Positions 244 through 63,918 of a stretch of DNA of 64,000 nt are shown in pieces. Both the position numbers and the translations under genes were made by a program. Every line of letters begins with the position of its first letter. The first letter of the stretch is position 1. This DNA is from Candidatus Omnitrophota bacterium. GTDB taxonomy: Bacteria; Omnitrophota; Gorgyraeia; Zapsychrales; Zapsychraceae. The DNA lies in assembly GCA_020429915.1 (NCBI GenBank), contig JAGQKV010000015.1, forward strand, positions 65,593 to 129,592. Direction: 5' to 3'. The notes below the pieces were generated by a model that worked only from the letters and a program-made list of their open reading frames with translations, searched no databases and had not been told where the DNA came from.

Positions 244-2424
244 TTACACCCCTCCGTTCCGGCGCAACTGGATGATGATCGACCGCGTCTCACCGCTGCG
301 TAAGTCCTGGATGACTTCCGAGTGCGGCTGATAATTGGCCGGGTCGTGGTTGATATCCAGACCGTGATTCCGCGTTCCGGTCTGATAATAACCGTCGGCG
401 GGCAGTCCCAACGGCGGCCAGGTCTCCGGAATATTGCTAAAGGTCGCTACCCCGCCGCCGGTAGTGACCTGCGTGAGATTTGATCCGGAGTACGGATCGA
501 GGACCACGGCCACCCCGTCCATCGGTTGCCCCGTGGTCTGATCGAAAACCGTTACCGTGACATTGGCAAAACCGCGCGGCCACATGCGTGCATCGTAGTC
601 GGTGACGGAATCCGTATTGATCGGGACGTCATACCCACTGGAACCGCGGCGAACATACTGATCGTTACCCACGGACTCATTGGTGTAGTAACCGCTGCGT
701 TGCGCCGAGAAGCGGTAGTTGTTGGTCTGCAGTCGAAAACCGGTTTGGGCCGGGTCACAGGCGATTTGATAGTCGCCGGTGGCATCGGTGGTATCCGTTA
801 CCGAGATGTTCACGCTCACACCCTGCAAGGCGTTGCCCGTGGCATCGTCGATCAAGGTACCGCCGACGTTGCCGCAATTTTGGTCCTGCACCGGAATGAC
901 AAGCGTGCCGATATCGCGCGGCGGGTCCCCGGGAAGGAGCGGGCCGGGGTACAAGCGGTTACTGTCCCGGCTGACATTTTGCAGTAGATCGCAACAGGTC
1001 ATCACGGCCACCTGGCCGTTGGCCCACACCTCCAGAAAATTTCGGTTGGGATCGGATGCCGGGAACATGGCCTGGACCGCCGGGACGCTAAAGGTGAAGT
1101 TTCCATTACCGTCTGTCGAGGCGGTTTGCAATTGAGTCCCTTTGCGCCAATCCTGATAATCGCTGCGTGGCCAGCGCGCGCGCACCGTGGCATTGGCTAC
1201 CGGCTGTCCGTTGCTGTCGATCACCCGTCCGGTAATAAGCACCTCGGGAACCGGCGTGACGGGAAGGTCGAGCTGAATGTTATCGCCCGGACGGACCTCA
1301 ATCCGGTCGGCCGCGCTGCTGCCGAAATAGGGATTGGAACAGATCAGGCTCATATCGTCCTGGACCACTGCCGTGGAAAATCCCTCCCTCTGATACTGAT
1401 ATGTGCAGGAAGGCGCCCCGGCCGCGCCGACCGCGTAGGCATAACCCAGCCGAAAGGCGTCGGTGGTGTTAACAGTGAAGTACTGAGGATCCGTGTCGTC
1501 GAAGGCGATTGTAAAGTTGTAGTCGCGCCGGTTGCTGGTGCGCGTCACGCGCGATCCGTTTTGATACAAATTAATTTGGCCGCGACTGAAGGTGGAAATC
1601 AACTGGCCCGTGCTCTGATCAATTACATTGCCGAAAATATGCGCTTCGTCCGGCTTGGGCGTCAGACAAAACGACAGGTCCGCCTTTTCTTCGTTGGGAC
1701 TGATCGTGATCGGCACGGGATGCGTGTACGGCTGGTAACGGTTGTCATTGACCGTCAGGATATAGGAGCCGGCCGGCAGGATAAAGCGGCCCTGACCGAA
1801 GTTATCAAAACCGTCAAACTCGGCAAAACTGAAGTTGGCGCCGTCATCATCCGTAAAACCCACCGAGGTGGTGCTGTAGGAAGCTGTCGAGGTGGTCGAG
1901 TCGAGTTCGACGCGGATCCCGCCGAGCGGGTCCATGGAAGCATCCTCGGAGCAAACAAAACCCTTCAGATTTCCGGCCAGCGGATCGGGCGGCCGCGACA
2001 AATAGGCCACGGAGCGGCGCTGCTGGGCCATCCCGTTGAGATCCTGCCAGGTCACGCTGACCACCGTCCTTTTCAGTTCCGGACTGCCGTTAACCAGGGT
2101 CACCTGCAGCGAACGGTCGAACCCGCCGAAGATGGTATCACCTGATAAATCACGTAGACCGCAGTCCAAATCGGCATTGTCCGGCGGAAAATCGCAGCGT
2201 TCCAGCATGTCAAAGACGGTATCCGCCTGCGCGACGCGCCGGACCTCTTCCTGGCTTTGCTGCAACAAGTTGGTTGCCGTGACGATATCACGCGCCATCG
2301 CCTGGCTGCGGGTCATCACGGACACCGAAACCCATCCGGCAACGCTGATCAGCGATATGACGACCACACCGACCATCATCTCCACCAGCGTTAGGCCCTG
2401 CTTGTTACGATTGACTAACAGCAT
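244..2424 (-). CDS. 726-aa prepilin-type protein with repeated carboxypeptidase-regulatory-like beta-sandwich domains. Putative pilus-tip or minor-pilin adhesin.
   Basis: N-terminus MLLVNRNKQG|LTLVEMMVGVVVISL is a class III signal with E at +5. At least four copies of a [ST]G-x-V-x-D-x-x-TG-x-P-[IML]-x-G-[AV]-x-V motif follow (GRVIDSNGQPVANATV, GTLIDDATGNALQGVSV, VTVFDQTTGQPMDGVAV, GNVIDQSTGQLIS). It is co-oriented and contiguous with pilQ. Confidence 0.65.
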   Translation of the reverse strand: MLLVNRNKQGLTLVEMMVGVVVISLISVAGWVSVSVMTRSQAMARDIVTATNLLQQSQEEVRRVAQADTVFDMLERCDFPPDNADLDCGLRDLSGDTIFGGFDRSLQVTLVNGSPELKRTVVSVTWQDLNGMAQQRRSVAYLSRPPDPLAGNLKGFVCSEDASMDPLGGIRVELDSTTSTASYSTTSVGFTDDDGANFSFAEFDGFDNFGQGRFILPAGSYILTVNDNRYQPYTHPVPITISPNEEKADLSFCLTPKPDEAHIFGNVIDQSTGQLISTFSRGQINLYQNGSRVTRTSNRRDYNFTIAFDDTDPQYFTVNTTDAFRLGYAYAVGAAGAPSCTYQYQREGFSTAVVQDDMSLICSNPYFGSSAADRIEVRPGDNIQLDLPVTPVPEVLITGRVIDSNGQPVANATVRARWPRSDYQDWRKGTQLQTASTDGNGNFTFSVPAVQAMFPASDPNRNFLEVWANGQVAVMTCCDLLQNVSRDSNRLYPGPLLPGDPPRDIGTLVIPVQDQNCGNVGGTLIDDATGNALQGVSVNISVTDTTDATGDYQIACDPAQTGFRLQTNNYRFSAQRSGYYTNESVGNDQYVRRGSSGYDVPINTDSVTDYDARMWPRGFANVTVTVFDQTTGQPMDGVAVVLDPYSGSNLTQVTTGGGVATFSNIPETWPPLGLPADGYYQTGTRNHGLDINHDPANYQPHSEVIQDLRSGETRSIIIQLRRNGGV

Positions 2425-5502: not shown

Positions 5503-5948
5503 TTCGCTTCCCCTCGTTTCAGCGTTACCGTCTGTTCGCCATTCGTTAATATCACTTCATCCGGTCCGATTTTGGTTATGGTGAAGTCTTTCAGTTTATC
5601 GTCTTTGCGGTACGTTCCCTTATCCTGTCCGCTCTTGAGAAAAGCCACGTATTCGTCGTTTTCCTTGAAGACGCCTAAAAACTTAAAACGCTTAAGATCC
5701 TGTCCTTGTTGCGGAATGCCGGCAAAGACCGGCGACTTTCTTTCTTCCTGGATGAGCGGCTCGAACGGATCACGGGTCACATCAATCGCCGCCTTCTTGG
5801 GTTTAAGAATGAGTTTCGCCAATTGCTCGTCGTCGATCTTCTCCAAGACGGGTTTGGCGACAACCGGTTTCGCCTCGGTCTTGAATCCGGCCAGGTCGCA
5901 TCCGGCGGCCAGCAATACGGTCATCATCGTCAAAGTCAGTCGTTTCAT
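5499..5948 (-). CDS. pilP: Pilus assembly lipoprotein PilP.
   Basis: Lipoprotein signal MKRLTLTMMTVLLAAGC. Called from size (149 aa) and its position between pilO and pilQ; its start overlaps the pilO stop. Confidence 0.55.
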   Translation of the reverse strand: MKRLTLTMMTVLLAAGCDLAGFKTEAKPVVAKPVLEKIDDEQLAKLILKPKKAAIDVTRDPFEPLIQEERKSPVFAGIPQQGQDLKRFKFLGVFKENDEYVAFLKSGQDKGTYRKDDKLKDFTITKIGPDEVILTNGEQTVTLKRGEAK

Positions 5949-9962: not shown

Positions 9963-11612
9963 CTATCCGTCCAGCAATACGTTGCGGATCGTCTCGTGAA
10001 ATTCGGTTGTCTGGGCCACGACCTTTTCCATCCCGGAAACGGCCAGCGGCTTCATCTTCTTGGTTTTGGCCATATCGACGATCTCCGATTCTCCGGCCGT
10101 CTTGATGATAAGATAGCGGATATCCTCGTCCATCTTGAGGATCTCGTAGACCCCGACGCGGTCCTGGAAACCGGTACCGGAACAGGACTCACAGCCCTGC
10201 GGCTTCGCCAAAACAAAGCTCTTGGCATCCGGGATATATTCACGGATTTTTTGCTGGGCCTCGGGGCAGCCGGGTTCGGTTGTCTTGCAACGCGGACAAA
10301 GCCGCCGCACCAGCCGCTGGGAAATCACCCCTGCCAGCGCGCTGCTGATCAGAAACGGTTCGATGTCCATCTCCAGCAAGCGGGTCACCGCGCCGACCGC
10401 CGAATTGGTATGCATGGTGGAAAGCACCAGGTGTCCGGTCAGGGCGGCGCGGATGGCGATCTCGGCCGTCTCCTTATCACGGATCTCACCGATCATAATG
10501 ATGTCCGGATCGTGCCGGAGAATATGGCGGATGGCCTTGGCAAAGTCGTAACCGATATGCAGATTGGTCGCAGTCTGGTTGATACCGGGGAGTTCATATT
10601 CGACCGGGTCCTCGACGGTGACGATACTGCGGTCGACCTGGTTGAGCTGGTTCAGCATGCTGTAGAGCGTGGTGGTCTTCCCCGCCCCGGTGGGCCCGGT
10701 GAGCAGGATCAGCCCGTAAGGTCGGGTCAGCAGCTGCTCGATATCTTTTATTTGCTCCGGGGTCATCCCCAAGTCCCCGAACGAGCGGTTGGCAAAAGCG
10801 GTGCTCAGGATCCGGACCACCATGTTTTCCCCGTTTATGTTGGGCAGTGTGGAAATCCGCAGGTCATACTCTTCGTTGCCCACTTTAAAGTGACAGCGTC
10901 CGTCCTGCGGCCGGCGAGTCTCGGCCACATCGAGACCGGATATAATCTTGATGCGTGAAATGCAGTTGCGCTGAAGTTCCCGGCTGATGGACTCCTTTTC
11001 ATAGAGATAGCCGTCGATCCGGAAGCGGACACGCATCACGTCCCGCTGCGGTTCGAAGTGTATATCGGAAGCCCTTTCCTTGACCGCCCGGCGGATGATG
11101 GAGTCGACGTAGTTGATCACCGACGCGTCGTCGACCACGACCGCGCTGGAGGCTGCCTTCATCGACTTGCCGGTTTGTACCGCATCAAAATACTCCTGAA
11201 GGGTGTGCTCGATATCGCGCGCGCTGGCCATGACCGGATACACGGAATAACCGCTCTTGATCTGAATGTCCTGCAGGGCGTTGACGTCCAGGGGATTGTT
11301 GGTAGCGACCATCAGGCGCTGGTCCTCCACGGAAATCGGGACAACCCGGTGGGCCTGCAGCAACTCAAACGGGACTAATTTAATGACCTCGGGATCTATG
11401 CGCTGTTGGCTCAGCTGGATGTAGGGAATTTGATGCAGACGCGAGAGACTTTCGGTCAGCCGCGGCTCATCGATAAAACCGCGGTCCAGCAGCAATTCTC
11501 CCAGCCGCCGGTTGTCAGTCTGCTGCAGCGCCAGGACTTCATCCAACTGGCGTTGCTGAATAATCCCTTCTTCGCAAAGGATTTCACCGAGTTTTTGACT
11601 TTTGCCATGCAT
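9963..11612 (-). CDS. pilB: Type IV pilus assembly ATPase PilB, GspE family.
   Basis: Walker A box LLTGPTGAGKTTTLYS; Asp and His boxes; a C-terminal tetracysteine motif CPRC...CESCSGTG. An AGGAG RBS precedes the ATG. Confidence 0.9.
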   Translation of the reverse strand: MHGKSQKLGEILCEEGIIQQRQLDEVLALQQTDNRRLGELLLDRGFIDEPRLTESLSRLHQIPYIQLSQQRIDPEVIKLVPFELLQAHRVVPISVEDQRLMVATNNPLDVNALQDIQIKSGYSVYPVMASARDIEHTLQEYFDAVQTGKSMKAASSAVVVDDASVINYVDSIIRRAVKERASDIHFEPQRDVMRVRFRIDGYLYEKESISRELQRNCISRIKIISGLDVAETRRPQDGRCHFKVGNEEYDLRISTLPNINGENMVVRILSTAFANRSFGDLGMTPEQIKDIEQLLTRPYGLILLTGPTGAGKTTTLYSMLNQLNQVDRSIVTVEDPVEYELPGINQTATNLHIGYDFAKAIRHILRHDPDIIMIGEIRDKETAEIAIRAALTGHLVLSTMHTNSAVGAVTRLLEMDIEPFLISSALAGVISQRLVRRLCPRCKTTEPGCPEAQQKIREYIPDAKSFVLAKPQGCESCSGTGFQDRVGVYEILKMDEDIRYLIIKTAGESEIVDMAKTKKMKPLAVSGMEKVVAQTTEFHETIRNVLLDG

Positions 11613-11693
11613 ACCCGCACTCCTGTGGAAATTCAGTTAATATCTGAGTATGCATGATGCTTTTGAGGTTGTCAAAAATTTCTTTGCGGAAGG

Positions 11694-11738
11694 ACAAAAA
11701 AAGACAGCCCTCGAGAGAGGGCTGTCTTTTTTCTGGAG
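11694..11738. terminator. Bidirectional rho-independent terminator between the NHL-protein gene and pilB.
   Basis: A9-GACAGCCCTC-gagag-GAGGGCTGTC-T7: a perfect 10-bp stem flanked by an A-run and a T-run. Confidence 0.7.
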
Positions 11739-11792
11739 GATAGGTGGTCTGCAGGTCAGCAAACCGGGGGGATCTTTATCGCCAATGAGCCG

Positions 11793-14291
11793 TTACTTCT
11801 TTAACTGGCTCATGCGTATACCGTTAGCATCCTGTCCGGCGGCCTTTTTGGAGAGTTCTTTAGGAACACTCACGGTCATTTTCAGACGGCCGTCATCGAG
11901 CAGGCTTTCATTTTCGATCTTGATGTGCGGGCCGATGTCCTCGACCGGTATCCCGTACTGATTGGCCACATTGGAGATAGCCAGCTGCAGGGTCATCTTG
12001 CGCATCATCTGATAGCGTAATTTTTCGTCCATGTTTTCAGTCTTGATCGGATAGGAAATCTGCGTGAAGTACAGCCGGTTCGGGTCCTGCTCGATCTTGG
12101 CGGCGACTTCGCTTTCATCCGCTTGCTCGGTACCGGCCTGAGCCTCAGCGCCTTCACTGACCGATTTGGGGGGCGGCATGGCGGCGACCTGCGGCTTCAT
12201 TTCGGCTGACTTATCCTGAGCCATTTCCAGCGGCTTGGATTCCATGGCGTCCGCGGTATTGGCCCCGATCTTGATTCCCAGCATCCCCTTCTTTAGGTCG
12301 GGAGCCGGTACGGCCGTCACTTTGATTTCCTCTTTGACCTCTTCTTTGCTCTGCTTGGCCATGGTTTCTTCCTTCTGGTCCATCGCCGGAGCCTTGGCTT
12401 CTTTGGCTAACATCGAAGCCTTATCTTCTTTGTTGGTCATCGGTGCCTTGGCTTTTTTAGCCATGACCGGTTGACCGTCGATATGAATGTTGTAAACGCT
12501 GATTTCGTCGCGGTCATAGTCGGCAACGTAAATCTGTCCGTTACTCGCGCTGATGGCCGACAATTTCGGGAAGTAGCTCCGGCCCTGTCCGTCCGATCCG
12601 AATTCCGTGATCAACTCTCCGTCGCTGTCAATGACCTTGACGGTGTGCGAGCCGCGGTCGGCAACATAAAGGTTGTCCGATTCGTCGAGCGCCATGTCTA
12701 CGGGCCAGTCGAATTCCACGAGGTCGCCGTAAGCGCCGATTTGCCGCAAGGGGGCCCCGTCTTTCTCGAAGATCTGGATCCGTTTGTTGCGGCTGTCCAG
12801 CACGTACAATTCCTCTTTCGAGTTGAACATCACCGCGGTGGGTTGATTGAATTGACCCAGCTGCGGAGGATTGTGATCCTCGTCGAGTTCCCCTTTCTGC
12901 CCGAAGGCATTGAGGTAAATCCCATCGCTGTTGAAAATCTGGATCCGGTTGTTCTTGGTATCCGCGACATAAATGTTTCCGTTATCGGACACGGCCACGC
13001 CGGACAGTTGATCGAACTGTCCGTTTTGGTCGCCCTTGCGGCCGAAGAAATAGTCATGACTACCGTCGCTGTCGAGAAACTGCAGACGGTTGTTGCCGGT
13101 ATCGGCGACCAGCAATTTTCCGTCTTCCTGCACGTGCATTGCCCGCGGGTTTTGCATGAGCAGCTTGGAGTTGTCAAAGTCTCCGTAAACGTAAAGTTCG
13201 TTCATATGCTGATGCAGAATGTGTCCGGTTGCCTCCGAGAGGGCGAACAGTCCGTATTCCTCATTAAAGCTGATGTCGGAGAGTGCCTTTTCCGCGAAGA
13301 TCGTCTCGGCAAAGTCAACGATAGGCAGGCGCTGATCCGCCGGCTGTAGCATCGCCTTATCGCTGCCGTTGACCTCGATAATCTGCACGCGTTTGTTCTT
13401 GGCATCCGCGATATAAACCTTGCCATGCTCGTCGGTGATGATACCTAACGGATGATCGAATTGTCCGCGTCCGATCCCTTTGGATCCGAAGGACAGCAGC
13501 AAATTTTGTTCCTGATCGATTTTAACGATACTGTCCGTCCATGAGTCGATCAGATAAAGATCGCCACGGGCATCAATGGCCAACCGGGCCGTGTCCGCGA
13601 TATAGTCACGGCCTTCCCAGTCAAACTCGATAATCTCCGGCATGCCGCCTTCGATGTGCCGTTTGACGATCTTCCCTTCTTTGGGATACAGCACGTACAT
13701 GTTGTTCTGAATGTCGAACGCCATGTCCGCCGGGCGGCCGTCCAAGGGCATGGACTCGAAATAAACACCCTTGGGTGAAAACTTGGAAATCAGCCGGTTG
13801 GCGATGTCGGCCACATAGATGTAGCCGTCATTGTCCAGAGCGACCAGGGTCGGTTCTCCGAATTGGCCGGCCTGGTCCCCGGAATTTCCGATTTGATAGA
13901 GATAGCGTCCCTGGGCGTTGAAGACCAGGACGCGATTATTTCCGGTATCGGCGATGATGATTTCTCCGTCCGCAGAGATCGCCAGCGACTCGGGGTTCAG
14001 GAGCTTCCCTTTACCCGTTCCGTACTCGGCGAAGCGGAACGTGAATTCACCCGCGGGATTGAAGACGTTGACTTGGCTCAGGCGCTGGTCCAGAACATAG
14101 ATGTTCCCGTCCGGAGACAAGGCCACATCGACCGGCATCTGCATCTCTGAACGAAGCTCTCCCACAAAACTCACCGATTCCTTGGAATCGACCGTGGTCG
14201 CTCCGAACAAAAGAAGGGTCAGGGCGATAAACATCGGGATCAGCCCGTCCCTCACATATCTTTGGTTCATGGCAGCGGCTACTGTTTTCAT
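11793..14291 (-). CDS. Secreted NHL-repeat protein with two beta-propeller blocks, a Lys/Ala/Glu-rich linker and a C-terminal domain.
   Basis: Many NHL-like repeats (ADTGNNRVLVFN, ADAKNKRVQIIE, ADTGNNRLQFLD, ADTKNNRIQIFN, DSRNKRIQIFE). Start set at MKTVAAAM..., which has a signal peptide and a perfect AAGGAG RBS; the ORF-track start at 14387 is an extension. Confidence 0.75.
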   Translation of the reverse strand: MKTVAAAMNQRYVRDGLIPMFIALTLLLFGATTVDSKESVSFVGELRSEMQMPVDVALSPDGNIYVLDQRLSQVNVFNPAGEFTFRFAEYGTGKGKLLNPESLAISADGEIIIADTGNNRVLVFNAQGRYLYQIGNSGDQAGQFGEPTLVALDNDGYIYVADIANRLISKFSPKGVYFESMPLDGRPADMAFDIQNNMYVLYPKEGKIVKRHIEGGMPEIIEFDWEGRDYIADTARLAIDARGDLYLIDSWTDSIVKIDQEQNLLLSFGSKGIGRGQFDHPLGIITDEHGKVYIADAKNKRVQIIEVNGSDKAMLQPADQRLPIVDFAETIFAEKALSDISFNEEYGLFALSEATGHILHQHMNELYVYGDFDNSKLLMQNPRAMHVQEDGKLLVADTGNNRLQFLDSDGSHDYFFGRKGDQNGQFDQLSGVAVSDNGNIYVADTKNNRIQIFNSDGIYLNAFGQKGELDEDHNPPQLGQFNQPTAVMFNSKEELYVLDSRNKRIQIFEKDGAPLRQIGAYGDLVEFDWPVDMALDESDNLYVADRGSHTVKVIDSDGELITEFGSDGQGRSYFPKLSAISASNGQIYVADYDRDEISVYNIHIDGQPVMAKKAKAPMTNKEDKASMLAKEAKAPAMDQKEETMAKQSKEEVKEEIKVTAVPAPDLKKGMLGIKIGANTADAMESKPLEMAQDKSAEMKPQVAAMPPPKSVSEGAEAQAGTEQADESEVAAKIEQDPNRLYFTQISYPIKTENMDEKLRYQMMRKMTLQLAISNVANQYGIPVEDIGPHIKIENESLLDDGRLKMTVSVPKELSKKAAGQDANGIRMSQLKK

Positions 14292-14324
14292 TTCCGTCTC
14301 CTTCATTGCGGGGTTCGGCGGGGC

Positions 14325-14365
14325 AAAAAAAAAACTGCCCATCCCTAAGACAAAGGAATAGGCAG
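14325..14365 (-). terminator. Intrinsic-terminator-like hairpin plus U10 tract in the NHL gene leader; candidate riboswitch expression platform.
   Basis: Reverse strand reads CUGCC-[21 nt]-GGGCAG followed by UUUUUUUUUU, about 25 nt upstream of the RBS. Confidence 0.45.
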
Positions 14366-14385
14366 CTGACCTGCAGAAATGATGC

Positions 14386-14482
14386 ACATCATTCGATTCG
14401 GTAACTGGCTATCCTATTCTTAGGACCCTTTAGCTTTGCGTCGCCGGGTTACCCCGGGTTTGCCTTTATCGTCGTAACGATA
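14386..14482 (-). ncRNA. Candidate c-di-GMP-I (GEMM) riboswitch aptamer.
   Basis: Reverse-strand RNA reads ...GAUAAAGGCAAACC-CGGGG-UAA-CCCGG-CGACGCAAAGCU-AAAGGGUCCUAAGAAUAGGAUAGCCA-GUUACCGAAUCG. It reproduces GGCAAACC, a P2 hairpin with a GNRA loop, GACGCAAAGC, a P3 hairpin carrying a CCUAAG/UAGG receptor-like motif, and GUUACCGA, in the order found in the Vibrio cholerae Vc2 aptamer. It lies between a sigma70-like promoter and the terminator hairpin. Confidence 0.55.
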
Positions 14483-14503
14483 AAACCCAAATTGTCTACA
14501 GGA

Positions 14504-14532
14504 AGTATAGAACCTTTTTATGGGCAATGCAA
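14504..14532 (-). promoter_or_regulatory. Sigma70-like promoter for the NHL gene and its riboswitch leader.
   Basis: Reverse strand reads TTGCAT, a 17-nt spacer, then TATACT. This gives a ~200-nt 5' UTR. Confidence 0.4.
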
Positions 14533-14767
14533 ATTTCCGACAAAAAAAATGTCACAATTTCTCCGGGCCGACACGTAACCTCCGTAAAACAGACGGGATA
14601 AGCGCCGGAAATATTTTCATCTCACCGTCGGACACCTGCACCCCTCATATTGTCTTACTAATATTAGTACCACTTGAAATAAACACTTAATCATACCAGG
14701 CCGGACAAGACGCCGGGCCCCTGCGGCAACAGAGTGCCGCCGGGCCCGACGCCGGTCGTGTGAAACG

Positions 14768-41440: not shown

Positions 41441-43222
41441 TCAGGCTAGCGGCAAAGTAAAACGGAAGCAGGAGCCGACCCCCATTTGGCTGGTAACGCG
41501 AACCTCTCCCTGATGAGCCTGAACAATATGTTTGACGATGGACAACCCCAACCCGGTCCCTCCGATTTCACGGGAATGGGCCTTGTCCACCCGGTAGAAG
41601 CGTTCGAAGATGCGCGGCAGGTCATTCTCCGGGATTCCGATCCCGGTATCCGCGATGCTGAGTTCCACGTACCGGCCCTTGTGCTGAGCTGAGACCGTTA
41701 CCAACCCGTTGTCCTTGTTATACTTAACCGCGTTCTCAATCAAATTCAAGAGGACCTGGGCGATGCTGGGGCCGTCACAACGCACTTTTCCGATATCATC
41801 GGGTATCTCCGTGCGAAAGGTAATCCCGCTTTTGGCAAATTGCTTACTCAGCCCCGTCTCCACCCGCTTCACCAGATCACCGATGTCATGCGGTTTGAAA
41901 TGGAACTGCATTTTACCGGACTCGATCCGGGACAGGTCCAACACGTCCTCGACCAATTTGGCCAATCGTTCGGCCTCCGAGTGGATGATATTGGTGAAAT
42001 CCTCGGCATTGCCCTTGTCATCAAGGGCGCCTTCCAGGAGTGTCTCGGCATACCCTTTGATATTGGTGATGGGGGTGCGCAATTCGTGAGAAACGTTGGC
42101 CACGAAGTCCTTGCGGACCATCTCCAACCGGCGTAGTTCGGTGATATTGTGAAAGACCATAACCGCCCCATCGACCACGCCGTGCAACGTGACCGGTGTG
42201 GCGTGGATAATCAAATGCTTCTCGCGCGGGAACAAGGCCGAGATTTCCCGAGAAATCGCTCCGGTCTTGCTCTCCAGCACTTCGGTAGCGATTTCCTGGA
42301 TTTCGACATTGCGGATTACCTCAATCGGTTTCTTGCCGACAACCTCTTCGGTCACCTGAAGCAACTCGCGCAAGGCCTTGTTCATCAGCAGGATCTTGCC
42401 GTCCGCGTTCATAACCAAGACTCCGTCAAACATGCTCAACAGAACGGCTTCCAATCGCAGGCGGCTGGCCACGACCTCTTCAATACGTTCCTTGATTTGC
42501 TTGGACATGTAGTTGATCGATGTCGACAGGTCGCCGAATTCGTCTTTGGAATGAATAGTCACTACTTTTGAGAAATCGCCGGCCGCGATGCTCTTGGATA
42601 TCGACGAAACCTCGCTGATCGGCTTGGAAATGATATGCGAGCCGACGAAACCGAGCGTCAACGATACGATAAAGGCGATCCCCAAGGCAACAAGCAGAAA
42701 ATTGGTCAGCCCGCCGGTGACTTTGTTGATCTCCGAAAGGGGCACCGCCAGCCGTATTATCCCCACGGAGTCTTGGTTGCGCGGCAATGTAAACGGAATG
42801 GCCATGTAAAGTAATTCCCGCTTAACGGTTTGGCTGAAGCGCCGGCTCATCCCCAGACCTGACTTGATGGCGTCCTGGACTTCGGGTCGGTACAAATGGT
42901 TCTCAACTTGCTCGACCATTTCCGGAGATAAATTCGAATCGCCCAAAACACGCCCGTCCAGACCAATGACCGTCACGCGCAAATCCAAATCTTCACCGAT
43001 CGCGTCGGCTATTTGATCGATCTGCGGCAAAGACAAGCGCGGACTGTACTGCTGCTGCAGGTAACGCGCGGCCAGGTTGATCTTGCCGTGCAGATTGGCT
43101 TGCAGTTGTTTAAAGATTTGATCGGTAAGGTGGTTCTGCAGATAGATGTAGACTCCGAGCAGAATGAACGCGGATATGGCGGCGAATACAATGGTGATTT
43201 TGTACTGGATGTTTATCCGCAA
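41441..43222 (-). CDS. phoR: Sensor histidine kinase, PhoR-like (TM-periplasmic-TM-HAMP-PAS-HisKA-HATPase).
   Basis: H-box VSHELRTPITNI and the N, G1 and G2 boxes (NLIENAVKYN, DTGIGIP, GGTGLGLSIV). Called PhoR-like because it is adjacent to pstCAB-phoU and an OmpR-family regulator. Confidence 0.75.
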   Translation of the reverse strand: MRINIQYKITIVFAAISAFILLGVYIYLQNHLTDQIFKQLQANLHGKINLAARYLQQQYSPRLSLPQIDQIADAIGEDLDLRVTVIGLDGRVLGDSNLSPEMVEQVENHLYRPEVQDAIKSGLGMSRRFSQTVKRELLYMAIPFTLPRNQDSVGIIRLAVPLSEINKVTGGLTNFLLVALGIAFIVSLTLGFVGSHIISKPISEVSSISKSIAAGDFSKVVTIHSKDEFGDLSTSINYMSKQIKERIEEVVASRLRLEAVLLSMFDGVLVMNADGKILLMNKALRELLQVTEEVVGKKPIEVIRNVEIQEIATEVLESKTGAISREISALFPREKHLIIHATPVTLHGVVDGAVMVFHNITELRRLEMVRKDFVANVSHELRTPITNIKGYAETLLEGALDDKGNAEDFTNIIHSEAERLAKLVEDVLDLSRIESGKMQFHFKPHDIGDLVKRVETGLSKQFAKSGITFRTEIPDDIGKVRCDGPSIAQVLLNLIENAVKYNKDNGLVTVSAQHKGRYVELSIADTGIGIPENDLPRIFERFYRVDKAHSREIGGTGLGLSIVKHIVQAHQGEVRVTSQMGVGSCFRFTLPLA

Positions 43223-61384: not shown

Positions 61385-61666
61385 TTGTATGAGGGAAACT
61401 ACGCAGTTTCAGGGATTTTCCTTTGTCTTCCATCCCGCTCTGGGCTAGAATGGATGATTATGAAGTCCCGCACAGCGTTAACTCTGATGGACCTGGTGAT
61501 TGCGGTCGTCCTGGCCGTCATTCTGACAGCGGTTATGTATCTGTTCAGCCGTTGGAACCGTGAAACGACCCCGTTTCGCGAACATATTACCGGTTTTCAC
61601 GGTATTGACTGCGCGGCCAATGCGGCCAGTCGCCGCCGCTGCCAGGAATTGGGCGTCGGCCGCTAG
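61385..61666 (+). CDS. Possible small membrane protein (about 70 aa from MIMKSR...). Weak call.
   Basis: One hydrophobic helix LTLMDLVIAVVLAVILTAVMYLF; no clear SD; lies in a divergent AT-rich promoter region. Confidence 0.2.
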   Translation: MYEGNYAVSGIFLCLPSRSGLEWMIMKSRTALTLMDLVIAVVLAVILTAVMYLFSRWNRETTPFREHITGFHGIDCAANAASRRRCQELGVGR

Positions 61667-63918
61667 CCCCCTTTTTTACTCTCCCCCCCAAAATCTTCAA
61701 GAAACTTCGTCGCCTCGGAGACCGGCATCGGTTTGGCAAAAAAGTACCCCTGTACAGAATCACAGCCGTTGTCCTTAAGGAACGCCAACTGTTCGGCAGT
61801 CTCTACCCCCTCGGCGACCACATGCAGGTCCAGGGCATGTGTCAGGCTGATCATCGCGCGGGTGATGGCCTTACTGTCCTTGTTGTCGGGAATGTCACGT
61901 ATAAATGTCCGGTCGATCTTGAGGTGATCGATCGGAAAGAACTTCAGACAGCCGAAGGAGGAATATCCCACACCGAAGTCATCAATCGCGATTTTCATAC
62001 CCAACTCCTTCAATTCAGAAAGCGTCCTGATGCTGTGTTCGATATTTTTCATCGCGATGCTTTCGGTGATCTCAATCTCCAGGGTAAAGGCCTCCACACC
62101 CGTCTTGGCGATGACGTCCTGAATCAATTCCGGCAGTCCCCCCTGCTCAAACTGGCGAGCCGAGAAATTCACCGCGATGTCGACCCCTTCGAAGCCGCCT
62201 TTCTGCCATTGCCGGCTCTGACGGCAGACCTTGTCCAGCACCCATTCTCCGATGGGAATAATGAGTCCGGTTTCCTCAGCCAACGGGATAAAATCCATCG
62301 GGTACACCAGCCCCCGCTCCGGGTGCTGCCAGCGCAGGAGCGCCTCCATGCGGATAACCTTGTTGCTGTGCAGATCAACGATCGGCTGGTAATAGACTTC
62401 AAACTCCATCTTGTCCACTGCGCGCCGCAGATCCGTTTCCAAATGCAGCCGGTCCATTGCCCATTGATGCATTTTCTCATCAAAGAGCTGATGATGCGCC
62501 TTGCCCTCATTCTTGGCCCGGTACATGGCGGTATCGGCGTCCCGCAACATATCCTCCGGTTTCTGCCGGAGCTCCGTATTGAGAGTGATACCGATACTGG
62601 CGGTGATGTAAATATCCTGCCCTCCAATCATCACCGGCTCGGCAATCGTTTTCAGGATCCGTTCGCAGATATGACTGGCCTCCGCGGCATCCTTGATACC
62701 GTCCAGCAGGACGATAAATTCGTCCCCGCCGAGGCGGGCTACCGTATCCACGGCGCGGATGGACTGTTTCAGTTTGTGGCTGACTTTGACCAGCAATTCA
62801 TCGCCGATCAGATGGCCCAGACTGTCGTTCACCACCTTAAATCGGTCGAGATCGATGAACAGGATTGCGAAAAGAAAGTCCTTGTTCCGTTTGGCCCGCT
62901 CAATACAATTTTCCAGCCGGTTCATAAAGAGGGCCCGGTTGGGCAGCGCGGTGAGGCGGTCGTGCAAGGCATCATGGCGCAGTTGTTCCTCGACGATCTT
63001 CTGCCGCGTGATATCGGTTTGCGAGCCGGCCATGCGGTACATGTTGCCCATACTGTCGGACACCGCCAGCCCCCGGGTCAGCACCCAAATATAGGAACCG
63101 TTCTTGTGCTGCATCTGGTATTCGATCTCTAAATGCGGGGTACTGCCCTCCTGGTGCGACCGGACCGCCTTCTTAAAACGCTCTTTGTGATGGGGATGAA
63201 TGCGGCGGTACCACTCTTCGATCGAATTACGCAGCTCCGTTTCCTCGTAACCCAGCATCGCCTTCCAACGCGAGGAAAAATAGATGCTGCCGTTGATCAG
63301 ATCCCAGTCCCACAAACCGTCGTTGGCCCCCGCCGCCGAAAGGGCATACCGTTGTTCGCTGCGGCGCAACGCCTCCATCGTACGAATGTGATCGGTAAAG
63401 TTGCGAATGACAACAAGGATCTGCTTTTGACCGATGACCTGCAACCGGGCCTCGAAGTAAAAACGCTTGTCGTTTTGTTCGATCCAATACTCGATGGTGA
63501 CCAGTTTATTGGTCTTGCCCAGTTCATCAATGGCCTCCTTGTACTTCTTGCCGATAAAATCACCGAAGGAATCCTGAATATAACTCCCCACAATATCTTC
63601 CGGATAGAGGAATTCCTCGCGGATGACGGGTTCGTGAAACTCGATGATCTCTCCCGTCCTTTTAATACGGATGATGGCATCCGGAAACAGGGCGATCATT
63701 GTTTCGATTTCGGCGTTCTTAGCAAGAAGTTCGCGGGAACTGATGTCGAGTGAGCGTTCGATGAGTTCGCGCTCTTCGTCGGTCTGAAAGTAGGTGAGAT
63801 TAACCGCGGAGAGGAACCCCTCGTACTTGGAAACTATTTCACTGTTTCCGTTGAGGTGTTTCCTGATTTGACGCTTCAGCAGCTTATGGTAGTCGTCCGC
63901 CATAGGCTCACGATTCAC
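61663..63918 (-). CDS. PAS-PAS-GGDEF-EAL signalling protein (diguanylate cyclase/phosphodiesterase).
   Basis: GGDEF motif RLGGDEF; EAL motifs EALLRWQHP, EIEITES, DDFGVGYSS; two PAS domains in the N-terminal half. Confidence 0.85.
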   Translation of the reverse strand: MNREPMADDYHKLLKRQIRKHLNGNSEIVSKYEGFLSAVNLTYFQTDEERELIERSLDISSRELLAKNAEIETMIALFPDAIIRIKRTGEIIEFHEPVIREEFLYPEDIVGSYIQDSFGDFIGKKYKEAIDELGKTNKLVTIEYWIEQNDKRFYFEARLQVIGQKQILVVIRNFTDHIRTMEALRRSEQRYALSAAGANDGLWDWDLINGSIYFSSRWKAMLGYEETELRNSIEEWYRRIHPHHKERFKKAVRSHQEGSTPHLEIEYQMQHKNGSYIWVLTRGLAVSDSMGNMYRMAGSQTDITRQKIVEEQLRHDALHDRLTALPNRALFMNRLENCIERAKRNKDFLFAILFIDLDRFKVVNDSLGHLIGDELLVKVSHKLKQSIRAVDTVARLGGDEFIVLLDGIKDAAEASHICERILKTIAEPVMIGGQDIYITASIGITLNTELRQKPEDMLRDADTAMYRAKNEGKAHHQLFDEKMHQWAMDRLHLETDLRRAVDKMEFEVYYQPIVDLHSNKVIRMEALLRWQHPERGLVYPMDFIPLAEETGLIIPIGEWVLDKVCRQSRQWQKGGFEGVDIAVNFSARQFEQGGLPELIQDVIAKTGVEAFTLEIEITESIAMKNIEHSIRTLSELKELGMKIAIDDFGVGYSSFGCLKFFPIDHLKIDRTFIRDIPDNKDSKAITRAMISLTHALDLHVVAEGVETAEQLAFLKDNGCDSVQGYFFAKPMPVSEATKFLEDFGGESKKGG

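Follow-up and report, generated by a model that had tools for sequence, protein, structure and literature searches.

A predicted c-di-GMP-I (GEMM-I) riboswitch of probable antiterminator OFF design in the leader of an NHL-repeat gene of Candidatus Omnitrophota

In the structure of Vc2, the c-di-GMP-I (GEMM-I) riboswitch aptamer of Vibrio cholerae, A47 intercalates between the bases of the ligand cyclic di-GMP (c-di-GMP). G20 of the same RNA recognizes G-alpha of the ligand (PMC6140456), C92 forms a Watson-Crick pair with G-beta (PMC6140456, PMC11705072), and C44 and G83 were described as an inter-helix pair (PMC11705072). In GEMM-Ib, sensing cyclic GMP-AMP (cGAMP), an A replaces the G at position 20 (PMC6140456). 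Furthermore, a receptor-less GEMM subtype featuring a GYRA loop was already described in 2007, and receptor-like sequences were reported to be 'almost never present' together with GYRA loops such as GUAA (PMC1950547). The usual GEMM design comprises a terminator overlapping the aptamer, and in 78 of the 322 GEMM-I riboswitches of Weinberg 2007 this overlap concerns the second hairpin (PMC1950547). The present study deals with a predicted aptamer of this class located on the minus strand of a 64,000-nt stretch of DNA from a Candidatus Omnitrophota bacterium (assembly GCA_020429915.1, contig JAGQKV010000015.1, positions 65,593 to 129,592; the whole stretch is referred to as the window), where it lies in the leader of a gene encoding an NHL-repeat protein. 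Taken as a whole, the element is rather probably a GEMM-I riboswitch acting as an antiterminator-type OFF switch in a monocistronic NHL leader.

An earlier note on this DNA, made from the letters alone, had proposed a c-di-GMP-I aptamer with a terminator in the leader of the NHL gene. This proposal is borne out by an Rfam match, canonical ligand contacts, covariation in helix P2, and the recurrence of the element at 12 loci. The whole window was scanned with the covariance models of Rfam 15 at gathering thresholds, and a separate permissive scan was performed for positions 14250-14600 on both strands. The sole match above gathering score within the 64 kb was located at 14396-14473 on the minus strand (E 1.9e-11), a level well out of the reach of chance. 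The match shown is RF03167 (c-di-GMP-I-GGC), with 59.3 bits at a cutoff of 59; one lower-scoring member of the same clan (CL00126), presumably RF01051 with its cutoff of 35, was also at or above its own cutoff for the window aptamer. The aptamer of the related locus L001 is near-identical to that of the window, a single nucleotide of the aptamer proper, situated in the P3 loop, being different; it reached 66.0 bits on RF01051. The anticipated RF01051 hit above threshold is thus found only indirectly, by way of the clan-mate and of L001, the best model shown being RF03167. For c-di-GMP-II (RF01786), named as a control, no match was obtained on 14250-14600 on either strand, even at E <= 10.

To place the element in a broader context, homologues of the NHL protein with identities of 41-86% were retrieved from assemblies and GTDB genomes; a search of the genome contigs with the single NHL protein as query gave no match, and an alignment-based scan then found the homologues. 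The NHL, ATPase and T2SSF proteins of the window each match an NCBI entry exactly, and these entries derive from a Candidatus Omnitrophota metagenome-assembled genome (MAG). Among the related loci, 12 distinct ones were found to carry the aptamer ahead of their NHL orthologue; the loci with an aptamer are L001-L005, L007, L008 (the same place as L011), L009, L012-L015 and L044. No GEMM-I aptamer was found at the Scalinduaceae locus or at NHL homologues of approximately 30% identity. Five loci carry tandem complete units of aptamer and terminator, an arrangement already known for GEMM-I (PMC4759541):

L007, 5638-5716 and 5814-5891, tandem units
L008, 5716-5793 and 5861-5939, tandem units
L013, L014 and L044, two units each

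L015, from an Omnitrophica WOR_2 MAG, contains an additional GEMM-I aptamer (5519-5596) followed by a terminator of its own. This unit lies approximately 1 kb past the NHL orthologue, where it presumably controls the next gene.

The window aptamer reads GGCAAA-CCCGGG-GUAA-CCCGG-C-GACGCAAAGC-UAAA-GGGUCCUAAGAAUAGGAUAGCC-AGUUACCGA (14464-14398, minus strand). Direct reading confirmed that the conserved blocks follow one another on the minus strand in the order given by the earlier note, the transcription of which contained two slips, namely one C too many in 'GGCAAACC-[CCGGG' and the omission of UAAA between GCAAAGC and GGGUCC. The parts of the aptamer and its ligand-contacting positions are as follows:

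14394-14474, minus strand, aptamer including P1, as given by the RF03167 match and the P1 pairing
14474-14470 and 14400-14394, minus strand, P1, in which CGACG pairs with CG-AA-UCG
14438-14463, minus strand, P2 hairpin with GC/GC (14463-62 with 14439-38), AAA bulge and CCGGG/CCCGG stem
14403-14435, minus strand, P3 hairpin in its short form, with bulged A14410-G14409, apical CCUA/UAGG and loop AGAA
14464, minus strand, equivalent of G20, G in each of the 20 aptamers aligned
14437, minus strand, equivalent of A47, an invariant A in 20 of 20 aptamers, as in RF01051 and not as in RF03167
14401, minus strand, equivalent of C92, an invariant C in 20 of 20 aptamers

These counts were obtained from 20 related aptamers aligned with MAFFT without fitting to any model. 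C14440 and the bulged G14409, the equivalents of the Vc2 inter-helix pair, were likewise invariant in all 20. The consensus sequences of RF01051 (GACGCAAAgC) and RF03167 (GACGCGAAgC) differ at a single pocket position, the equivalent of A47. The name of the GGC family refers to three pocket nucleotides. Since GACGCAAAGC, and not GACGCGAAGC, is found in the window and in each of its 20 relatives, filing under the GGC variant was rejected; a GEMM-Ib (c-AMP-GMP) identity was rejected as well, G14464 being an invariant G and not A. Because the pocket nucleotides are canonical and L001 scores highly on RF01051, the aptamer is assigned, as judged from sequence, to the canonical c-di-GMP-I (GEMM-I) class, in a receptor-less form with a short P3 and a GYRA loop. 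RF03167 probably outscores RF01051 narrowly merely through modelling the same short P3, and the best-match label c-di-GMP-I-GGC is misleading for the whole clade of canonical short-P3 aptamers. Given the standard pocket of G20, A47 and C92, c-di-GMP is the predicted ligand, and we infer that the RNA binds it.

Base pairing was counted on the MAFFT alignment for 18 distinct aptamer sequences, with 500 shuffles and slid 3' partners serving as controls. Overall, 90% of the cells were paired, compared to 25-44% when the 3' partners were slid by 1-3 columns. In P2, which features a GUAA tetraloop at 14452-14449 and a C-C mismatch at the stem base, five of the six stem pairs had changed on both sides, and the observed covariation score was reached by none of the 500 shuffles. 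The basal and middle pairs of P3 were 97-100% paired and nearly invariant, and its apical pairs vary with compensation (pair 64-72 being UA in 12, UG in 4 and AU in 1 of the sequences). The 2-bp core CG/CG of P1 was invariant, and the AAA linker (GACGC-AAA-GC) is present between P2 and P3. This pattern obviously points to an aptamer under purifying selection with compensatory changes. Concerning the three helices put forward previously, P2 is supported by covariation and P3 by its pairing frequency; P1 is weakly supported beyond its CG/CG core.

The sequence CCUAAG...UAGG, previously described as tetraloop-receptor-like, is present in the window, but it represents the apical stem of a short P3, and the P2 loop is of the GYRA type. 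A receptor at this site was rejected, as only AA lies between the two halves and a distal helix is missing. In the orthologues, the apical block varies as a plain stem (CCUA/UAGG, CCUU/AAGG, CCUAA/UUAGG). The 11-nt tetraloop receptor with a GAAA loop, an optional feature occurring in about half of the class members, was not found in P3; its absence does not exclude class membership, because it is expected for members with GYRA loops.

On direct reading, the minus-strand leader runs from the promoter through the aptamer blocks and the terminator hairpin with its U10 tract to the Shine-Dalgarno (SD) sequence and the ATG. Its elements outside the aptamer and the terminator, together with the gene that it precedes, are:

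14532-14527, minus strand, -35 hexamer TTGCAT, read directly and given by a promoter scan
14509-14504, minus strand, -10 hexamer TATACT, read directly and given by the promoter scan
14486-14497, minus strand, conserved 5' leader block AGACAAUUUGGG, which hardly varies among promoter-proximal leaders of the clade
14378-14393, minus strand, spacer hairpin AAUGAU-GUGC-AUCAUU between aptamer and terminator, folding at -3.7 kcal/mol
14303-14298, minus strand, SD sequence AAGGAG, 6 nt ahead of the ATG at 14291
11793-14291, minus strand, NHL gene (832 aa; Pfam NHL, E 3e-54; exact match to MCA9394392.1, Candidatus Omnitrophota)

The promoter proposed upstream of the aptamer, with a spacer of 17 nt between TTGCAT and TATACT, was recovered by direct reading and by the scan, the latter giving another register (TTTGCA-18-TATACT). 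Promoter hexamers are conserved in the first-copy leaders of the orthologues, in which a TTGCAT-like hexamer recurs 17 nt from TATACT. The -10 region UCUAUACUUC is conserved in the window and in L001-L005, L007a, L009 and L012, and the -10 reads UAUACU in L008a, L013a, L014a and L044a. Transcription is predicted to start near A14497, approximately 7 nt past the promoter. Between terminator and SD sequence, a GC-rich segment, GCCCCGCCGAACCCCG (14311-14324, minus strand), was observed, which pairs with P2-region sequence in the minimum free energy (MFE) fold of the full-length transcript; it occurs only in the window and L001 and is missing from more distant orthologues.

The hairpin CUGCC...GGGCAG followed by ten U, suggested by the earlier note to lie downstream of the aptamer, was verified by direct reading, a terminator scan and its folding energy. 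The terminator and the strand proposed to compete for its 5' arm are located as follows:

14333-14367, minus strand, intrinsic terminator hairpin GCUGCC...GGGCAG, found by the terminator scan (-20.3 kcal/mol)
14366-14355 and 14345-14335, minus strand, 5' arm GCUGCCUAUUCC and 3' arm GGGAUGGGCAG of the terminator
14325-14334, minus strand, U10 tract of exactly ten U, read directly
14408-14419, minus strand, candidate antiterminator strand GAAUAGG-A-UAGC (P3 loop and 3' strand), pairing with 14356-14366

The terminator begins 32 nt past the aptamer without overlap, and this distance amounts to 14-41 nt in 18 of 19 related units. Of the 19 aptamers examined, 18 are followed by a terminator in which the 5' arm is akin to GCCUAUYC; 17 keep that core, and L015x diverges further. 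The core was kept while loops and spacers diverged, the sequences between aptamer and terminator differing among the orthologues. The 3' arm reads GGAUAGG and mimics GGAUAGCC, the invariant 3' strand of P3. By comparison, the stem of the ordinary terminator behind the NHL gene changes freely in sequence from one of these loci to another. For the window, the duplex between the 3' half of P3 and the 5' arm of the terminator was calculated at -14.0 kcal/mol, compared to a mean of -7.8 for shuffled sequences. In 17 of 18 cases this duplex was more stable than the shuffled mean, and in 13 of 18 it ranked within the best 5% of shuffles. When the leader was cut before the terminator 3' arm, the MFE fold contained the antiterminator (-47.2 kcal/mol; enforced aptamer fold, -35.5). 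The pairing AGACAA:UUGUCU, which connects the loop of the terminator with the 5' end and appeared in the truncated MFE of the window, was dropped, since it is absent from the orthologues. Support for the antiterminator comes mostly from complementarity of the conserved core and not from compensatory change. At L004 (2886-2960), the called start of the NHL gene lies upstream of the riboswitch terminator, which is situated 41 nt past the aptamer and inside the called open reading frame; this start was probably mis-called.

In the mechanism proposed here, the terminator 5' arm would invade P3 when no ligand is present, so that the antiterminator forms and RNA polymerase continues into the NHL gene. 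Binding of c-di-GMP would lock P3 in the aptamer, the terminator would form and transcription would stop. Transcriptional OFF control at high c-di-GMP is the likely direction, because the terminator lies outside the aptamer and complements the P3 3' strand with its 5' arm. For a GEMM-I switch acting in the OFF direction, Vc2 provides a precedent (bioRxiv 10.1101/617340).

In addition to the elements described so far, the subclade of the window features a hairpin at the 5' side of the aptamer, termed P0:

14464-14485, minus strand, P0 hairpin UUUUAUCGU-UACG-ACGAUAAAG, 9 bp, -7.8 kcal/mol, abutting the aptamer

P0, which the earlier note had not mentioned, competes with P1: the P1 5' strand and the whole of J1/2, with the G20 equivalent, are taken up in its stem. 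Across eight leaders (the window, L001-L005, L009 and L007b) the arms of P0 do not vary, and its loop comprises 3, 4 or 6 nt. In L007b, P0 was kept after the upstream terminator with no promoter in front; it is missing from L008a, L013a, L014a and L044a, where the terminator design is the same. Furthermore, AUUUGG (14492-14487) can pair with CCGAAU (14401-14396). This alternative closing helix, which would bury C92, was obtained in the MFE folds of the window (full length), L002, L004 and L009, and on this basis it may form. No covariation was found in P0 or in the alternative closing helix, the arms being invariant. As clade members lacking P0 keep the same terminator design, P0 is regarded as an add-on of the window's subclade, which might tune the ligand threshold. 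The varying loop length and the retention of P0 in the promoter-less L007b argue for a role as RNA rather than as a DNA operator. A tentative and rather doubtful extension is that the riboswitch of this subclade is gated from the 5' side by P0, which would form before the aptamer is transcribed. If so, c-di-GMP would have to pay for opening P0, resulting in a higher switching threshold or a three-state switch. To our knowledge, an anti-aptamer element located 5' of the aptamer has not been known from characterized GEMM-I riboswitches.

Several observations weigh against the OFF switch as proposed. The RF03167 cutoff is cleared by 0.3 bits only, the RF01051 pass of the window is known only as that of one clan-mate over its own cutoff, and only 50% of the cells are paired in the P1 extension (in the window, CGA/UCG around an AA bulge). 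The comparison of cognate with non-cognate antiterminator pairs was marginal (permutation p = 0.044). Being a local hairpin, P3 will have formed by the time the terminator arm is transcribed. As the full-length MFE contains the terminator with or without the aptamer constraint, the switch must be kinetic, and kinetic switching is not demonstrable from folding energies. P0 would hold G20 and the P1 5' strand paired, so that the aptamer may rarely fold, or the switch logic may be more complex than proposed.

The same aptamer might instead operate as an ON switch, in which the ligand-free leader would adopt P0 and the AUUUGG:CCGAAU helix beside intact P2 and P3, leaving the terminator arm free and termination the default, and the ligand would remodel the 5' region into P1 and disfavour the terminator. 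This alternative is possible, if unlikely. The unconstrained full-length MFE (-59.5 kcal/mol) consists of P0, the closing helix, P2 and P3 plus the terminator, and conservation within the clade extends to P0 as well as to AAUUUGG. Moreover, c-di-GMP commonly induces adhesins and surface proteins. Many described GEMM-I terminator switches with a terminator overlapping the second hairpin are of the ON type (PMC1950547), and the Bc3-5 riboswitches represent another ON example (PMC4759541). However, no conserved pairing was found by which the ligand-bound fold would block the terminator, which is set apart from the aptamer by the spacer described above, and the AGACAA:UUGUCU pairing of the window is not shared by the orthologues. 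ON control would also leave the conserved complementarity of terminator arm and P3 without a role, and the units L008a, L013a, L014a and L044a share the terminator design without possessing P0.

Two further explanations concern what the leader binds. A different ligand, either 3',3'-cGAMP or that of the c-di-GMP-I-GGC class, could be suspected from the fact that RF03167 beats RF01051 for the window and most Omnitrophota relatives, and variant 'snuggler' classes hidden in GEMM-I are documented (PMC7266159). It appears very unlikely in view of the A shared by the window and its 20 relatives at the nucleotide distinguishing the two models, the invariant G20 (A in the cGAMP class, PMC6140456) and the invariant C92; the lead of RF03167 is probably due to the shared short P3 alone, and the presence of c-di-GMP metabolism follows from the GGDEF-EAL protein encoded in the genome. 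The inverted repeat TTTTATCGT-N4-ACGATAAA (approximately +13 to +34) might, on the other hand, be the operator of a dimeric repressor, the aptamer being secondary or decaying. The repeat is perfect, its arms are invariant in the eight leaders with no covariation proving an RNA helix, and Weinberg 2007 cautions that hairpin motifs can be DNA sites for protein binding (PMC1950547). Nevertheless, this explanation is highly improbable: the arm spacing of 3, 4 or 6 nt between loci is tolerable for an RNA loop and not for a dimeric DNA-binding protein, the repeat was retained in L007b after the upstream terminator and without a promoter, and the aptamer bears the marks of purifying selection with compensatory changes.

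Returning to the gene placed under the proposed OFF switch, its product was correctly recognized by the earlier note as an NHL-repeat protein. The 832-aa protein possesses a hydrophobic N-terminus, two NHL beta-propeller regions, a low-complexity linker rich in K, E, A and P, and a conserved C-terminal domain. The features that delimit its transcription unit and supply its c-di-GMP context are:

11694-11728, minus strand, terminator after the NHL gene, AAGACAGCCCUC-UCUC-GAGGGCUGUCUU with a U tract (-21.6 kcal/mol)
11647-11675, minus strand, ATPase promoter TTGACA-17-CATACT, directly upstream of the MshEN-type ATPase gene
9963-11612, minus strand, MshEN-type ATPase gene (Pfam MshEN, E 1.7e-20)
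61663-63918, minus strand, gene of a PAS-GGDEF-EAL protein of 751 aa

The gap of 180 nt between the NHL and ATPase genes holds the terminator and then the promoter. All five orthologous loci examined (L001-L005) have kept the terminator, with compensatory changes in its stem; it was overlooked by the pattern scanner, probably as flanking A and T tracts extend the stem. The ATPase promoter is also present in four of these five loci (L001, L003, L004 and L005), the gap of L002 ending just past TTGACA. Because a conserved terminator follows the NHL gene and the ATPase gene is preceded by its own promoter, the riboswitch unit is most likely monocistronic and would control the NHL gene alone. An operon headed by the riboswitch and extending from NHL through ATPase, T2SSF, pilin, PilMN and PilO to secretin was rejected for the same two features, and direct riboswitch control of the pilus genes, as implied by the earlier note, is therefore not supported.

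The 3' untranslated region (UTR) of the NHL gene (11690-11792, minus strand) contains CCCCCC, a 7-bp hairpin GGUUUGC-UGACCU-GCAGACC, an anti-SD-like CCUCCAG and the strong terminator. It is conserved in L001 (6970-7055), L002 (8376-8460), L003 (5153-5237), L004 (5344-5430) and L005 (8366-8455), with U.G to U-A swaps in the hairpin of L004 and L005. A comparison of this element with Rfam matched no family; it could be a 3'-UTR-derived small RNA or a regulatory element.

Downstream of the NHL gene, genes for an MshEN-T2SSE ATPase, T2SSF, a pilin-like protein, PilMN, PilO and a secretin follow in this order, in agreement with the type IV pilus locus noted before, which resembles that of a type II secretion system (T2SS). 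The conservation of this neighbourhood points to a functional tie with the pilus or secretion system and not to co-transcription. Residues 7-59 of the ATPase comprise two MshEN-like motifs of 24 residues, KLGEILCEEGIIQQRQLDEVLALQ - QTDNR - RLGELLLDRGFIDEPRLTESLSRL, separated by the canonical spacer of five residues. Each motif shows one deviation from the relaxed pattern of PMC5013675, namely C at position 7 in motif 1 and L for Q at position 24 in motif 2. The ATPase may represent a putative c-di-GMP receptor encoded beside the riboswitch-controlled gene, and c-di-GMP may act on this neighbourhood at two levels, through the riboswitch and through the ATPase. The PAS-GGDEF-EAL protein mentioned in the earlier note is indeed encoded in the window, so the genome has the capacity for c-di-GMP turnover. 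A Cache/HAMP/PAS histidine kinase is encoded at 41441-43222 (minus strand). At the end of the pilus cluster, a gene for a 726-aa protein (244-2424, minus strand) was observed, an unusually large pilin-like protein with an N-terminal pilin-type methylation motif and CarboxypepD_reg/Big_1 domains.

Our results place c-di-GMP riboswitch control in the uncultivated phylum Omnitrophota as a new example of a well-known RNA class, and the knowledge of the class itself is unchanged. The predicted effector can be named: it is the gene for a large NHL beta-propeller protein, invariably located beside a pilus/T2SS-like cluster with an MshEN-like ATPase, which provides a concrete hypothesis for the coupling of c-di-GMP to the cell surface in Omnitrophota. 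Within the literature searched, no paper mentioning both 'NHL repeat' and 'c-di-GMP riboswitch' was found. Points of modest interest are the partnership with the NHL gene, the antiterminator (OFF) wiring, the 5' hairpin and the misleading RF03167 label.

Compared to Vc2, the RF01051-type aptamer of V. cholerae, the window aptamer features the same block order, the G20, A47 and C92 nucleotides and those of C44-G83, the AAA bulge and GNRA loop of P2, the AAA linker between P2 and P3, and a 2-bp CG/CG top of P1 with a bulge. It differs from Vc2 by its short P3 without the 11-nt receptor, by GUAA rather than GAAA in the loop, by the C-C mismatch at the P2 stem base in the window's subclade, and by the host phylum. 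The best-scoring model is c-di-GMP-I-GGC (RF03167), with which it shares the short P3 and nearly the same consensus, but that consensus has G where the window and its 20 relatives have A. The 3',3'-cGAMP-sensing GEMM-Ib aptamers of Geobacter possess the same overall fold and belong to the same clan, whereas they carry A at the G20 position. The overlap-type GEMM-I switches resemble the window in that an intrinsic terminator stands in competition with the second hairpin on its 3' side, and the tandem ON switches Bc3-5 of Bacillus thuringiensis find their counterpart in the tandem complete units of the five loci listed above. Unlike in both of these systems, the terminator of the window lies outside the aptamer, its 5' arm complementing the P3 3' strand and its 3' arm mimicking it, and the predicted logic is therefore inverted to OFF.

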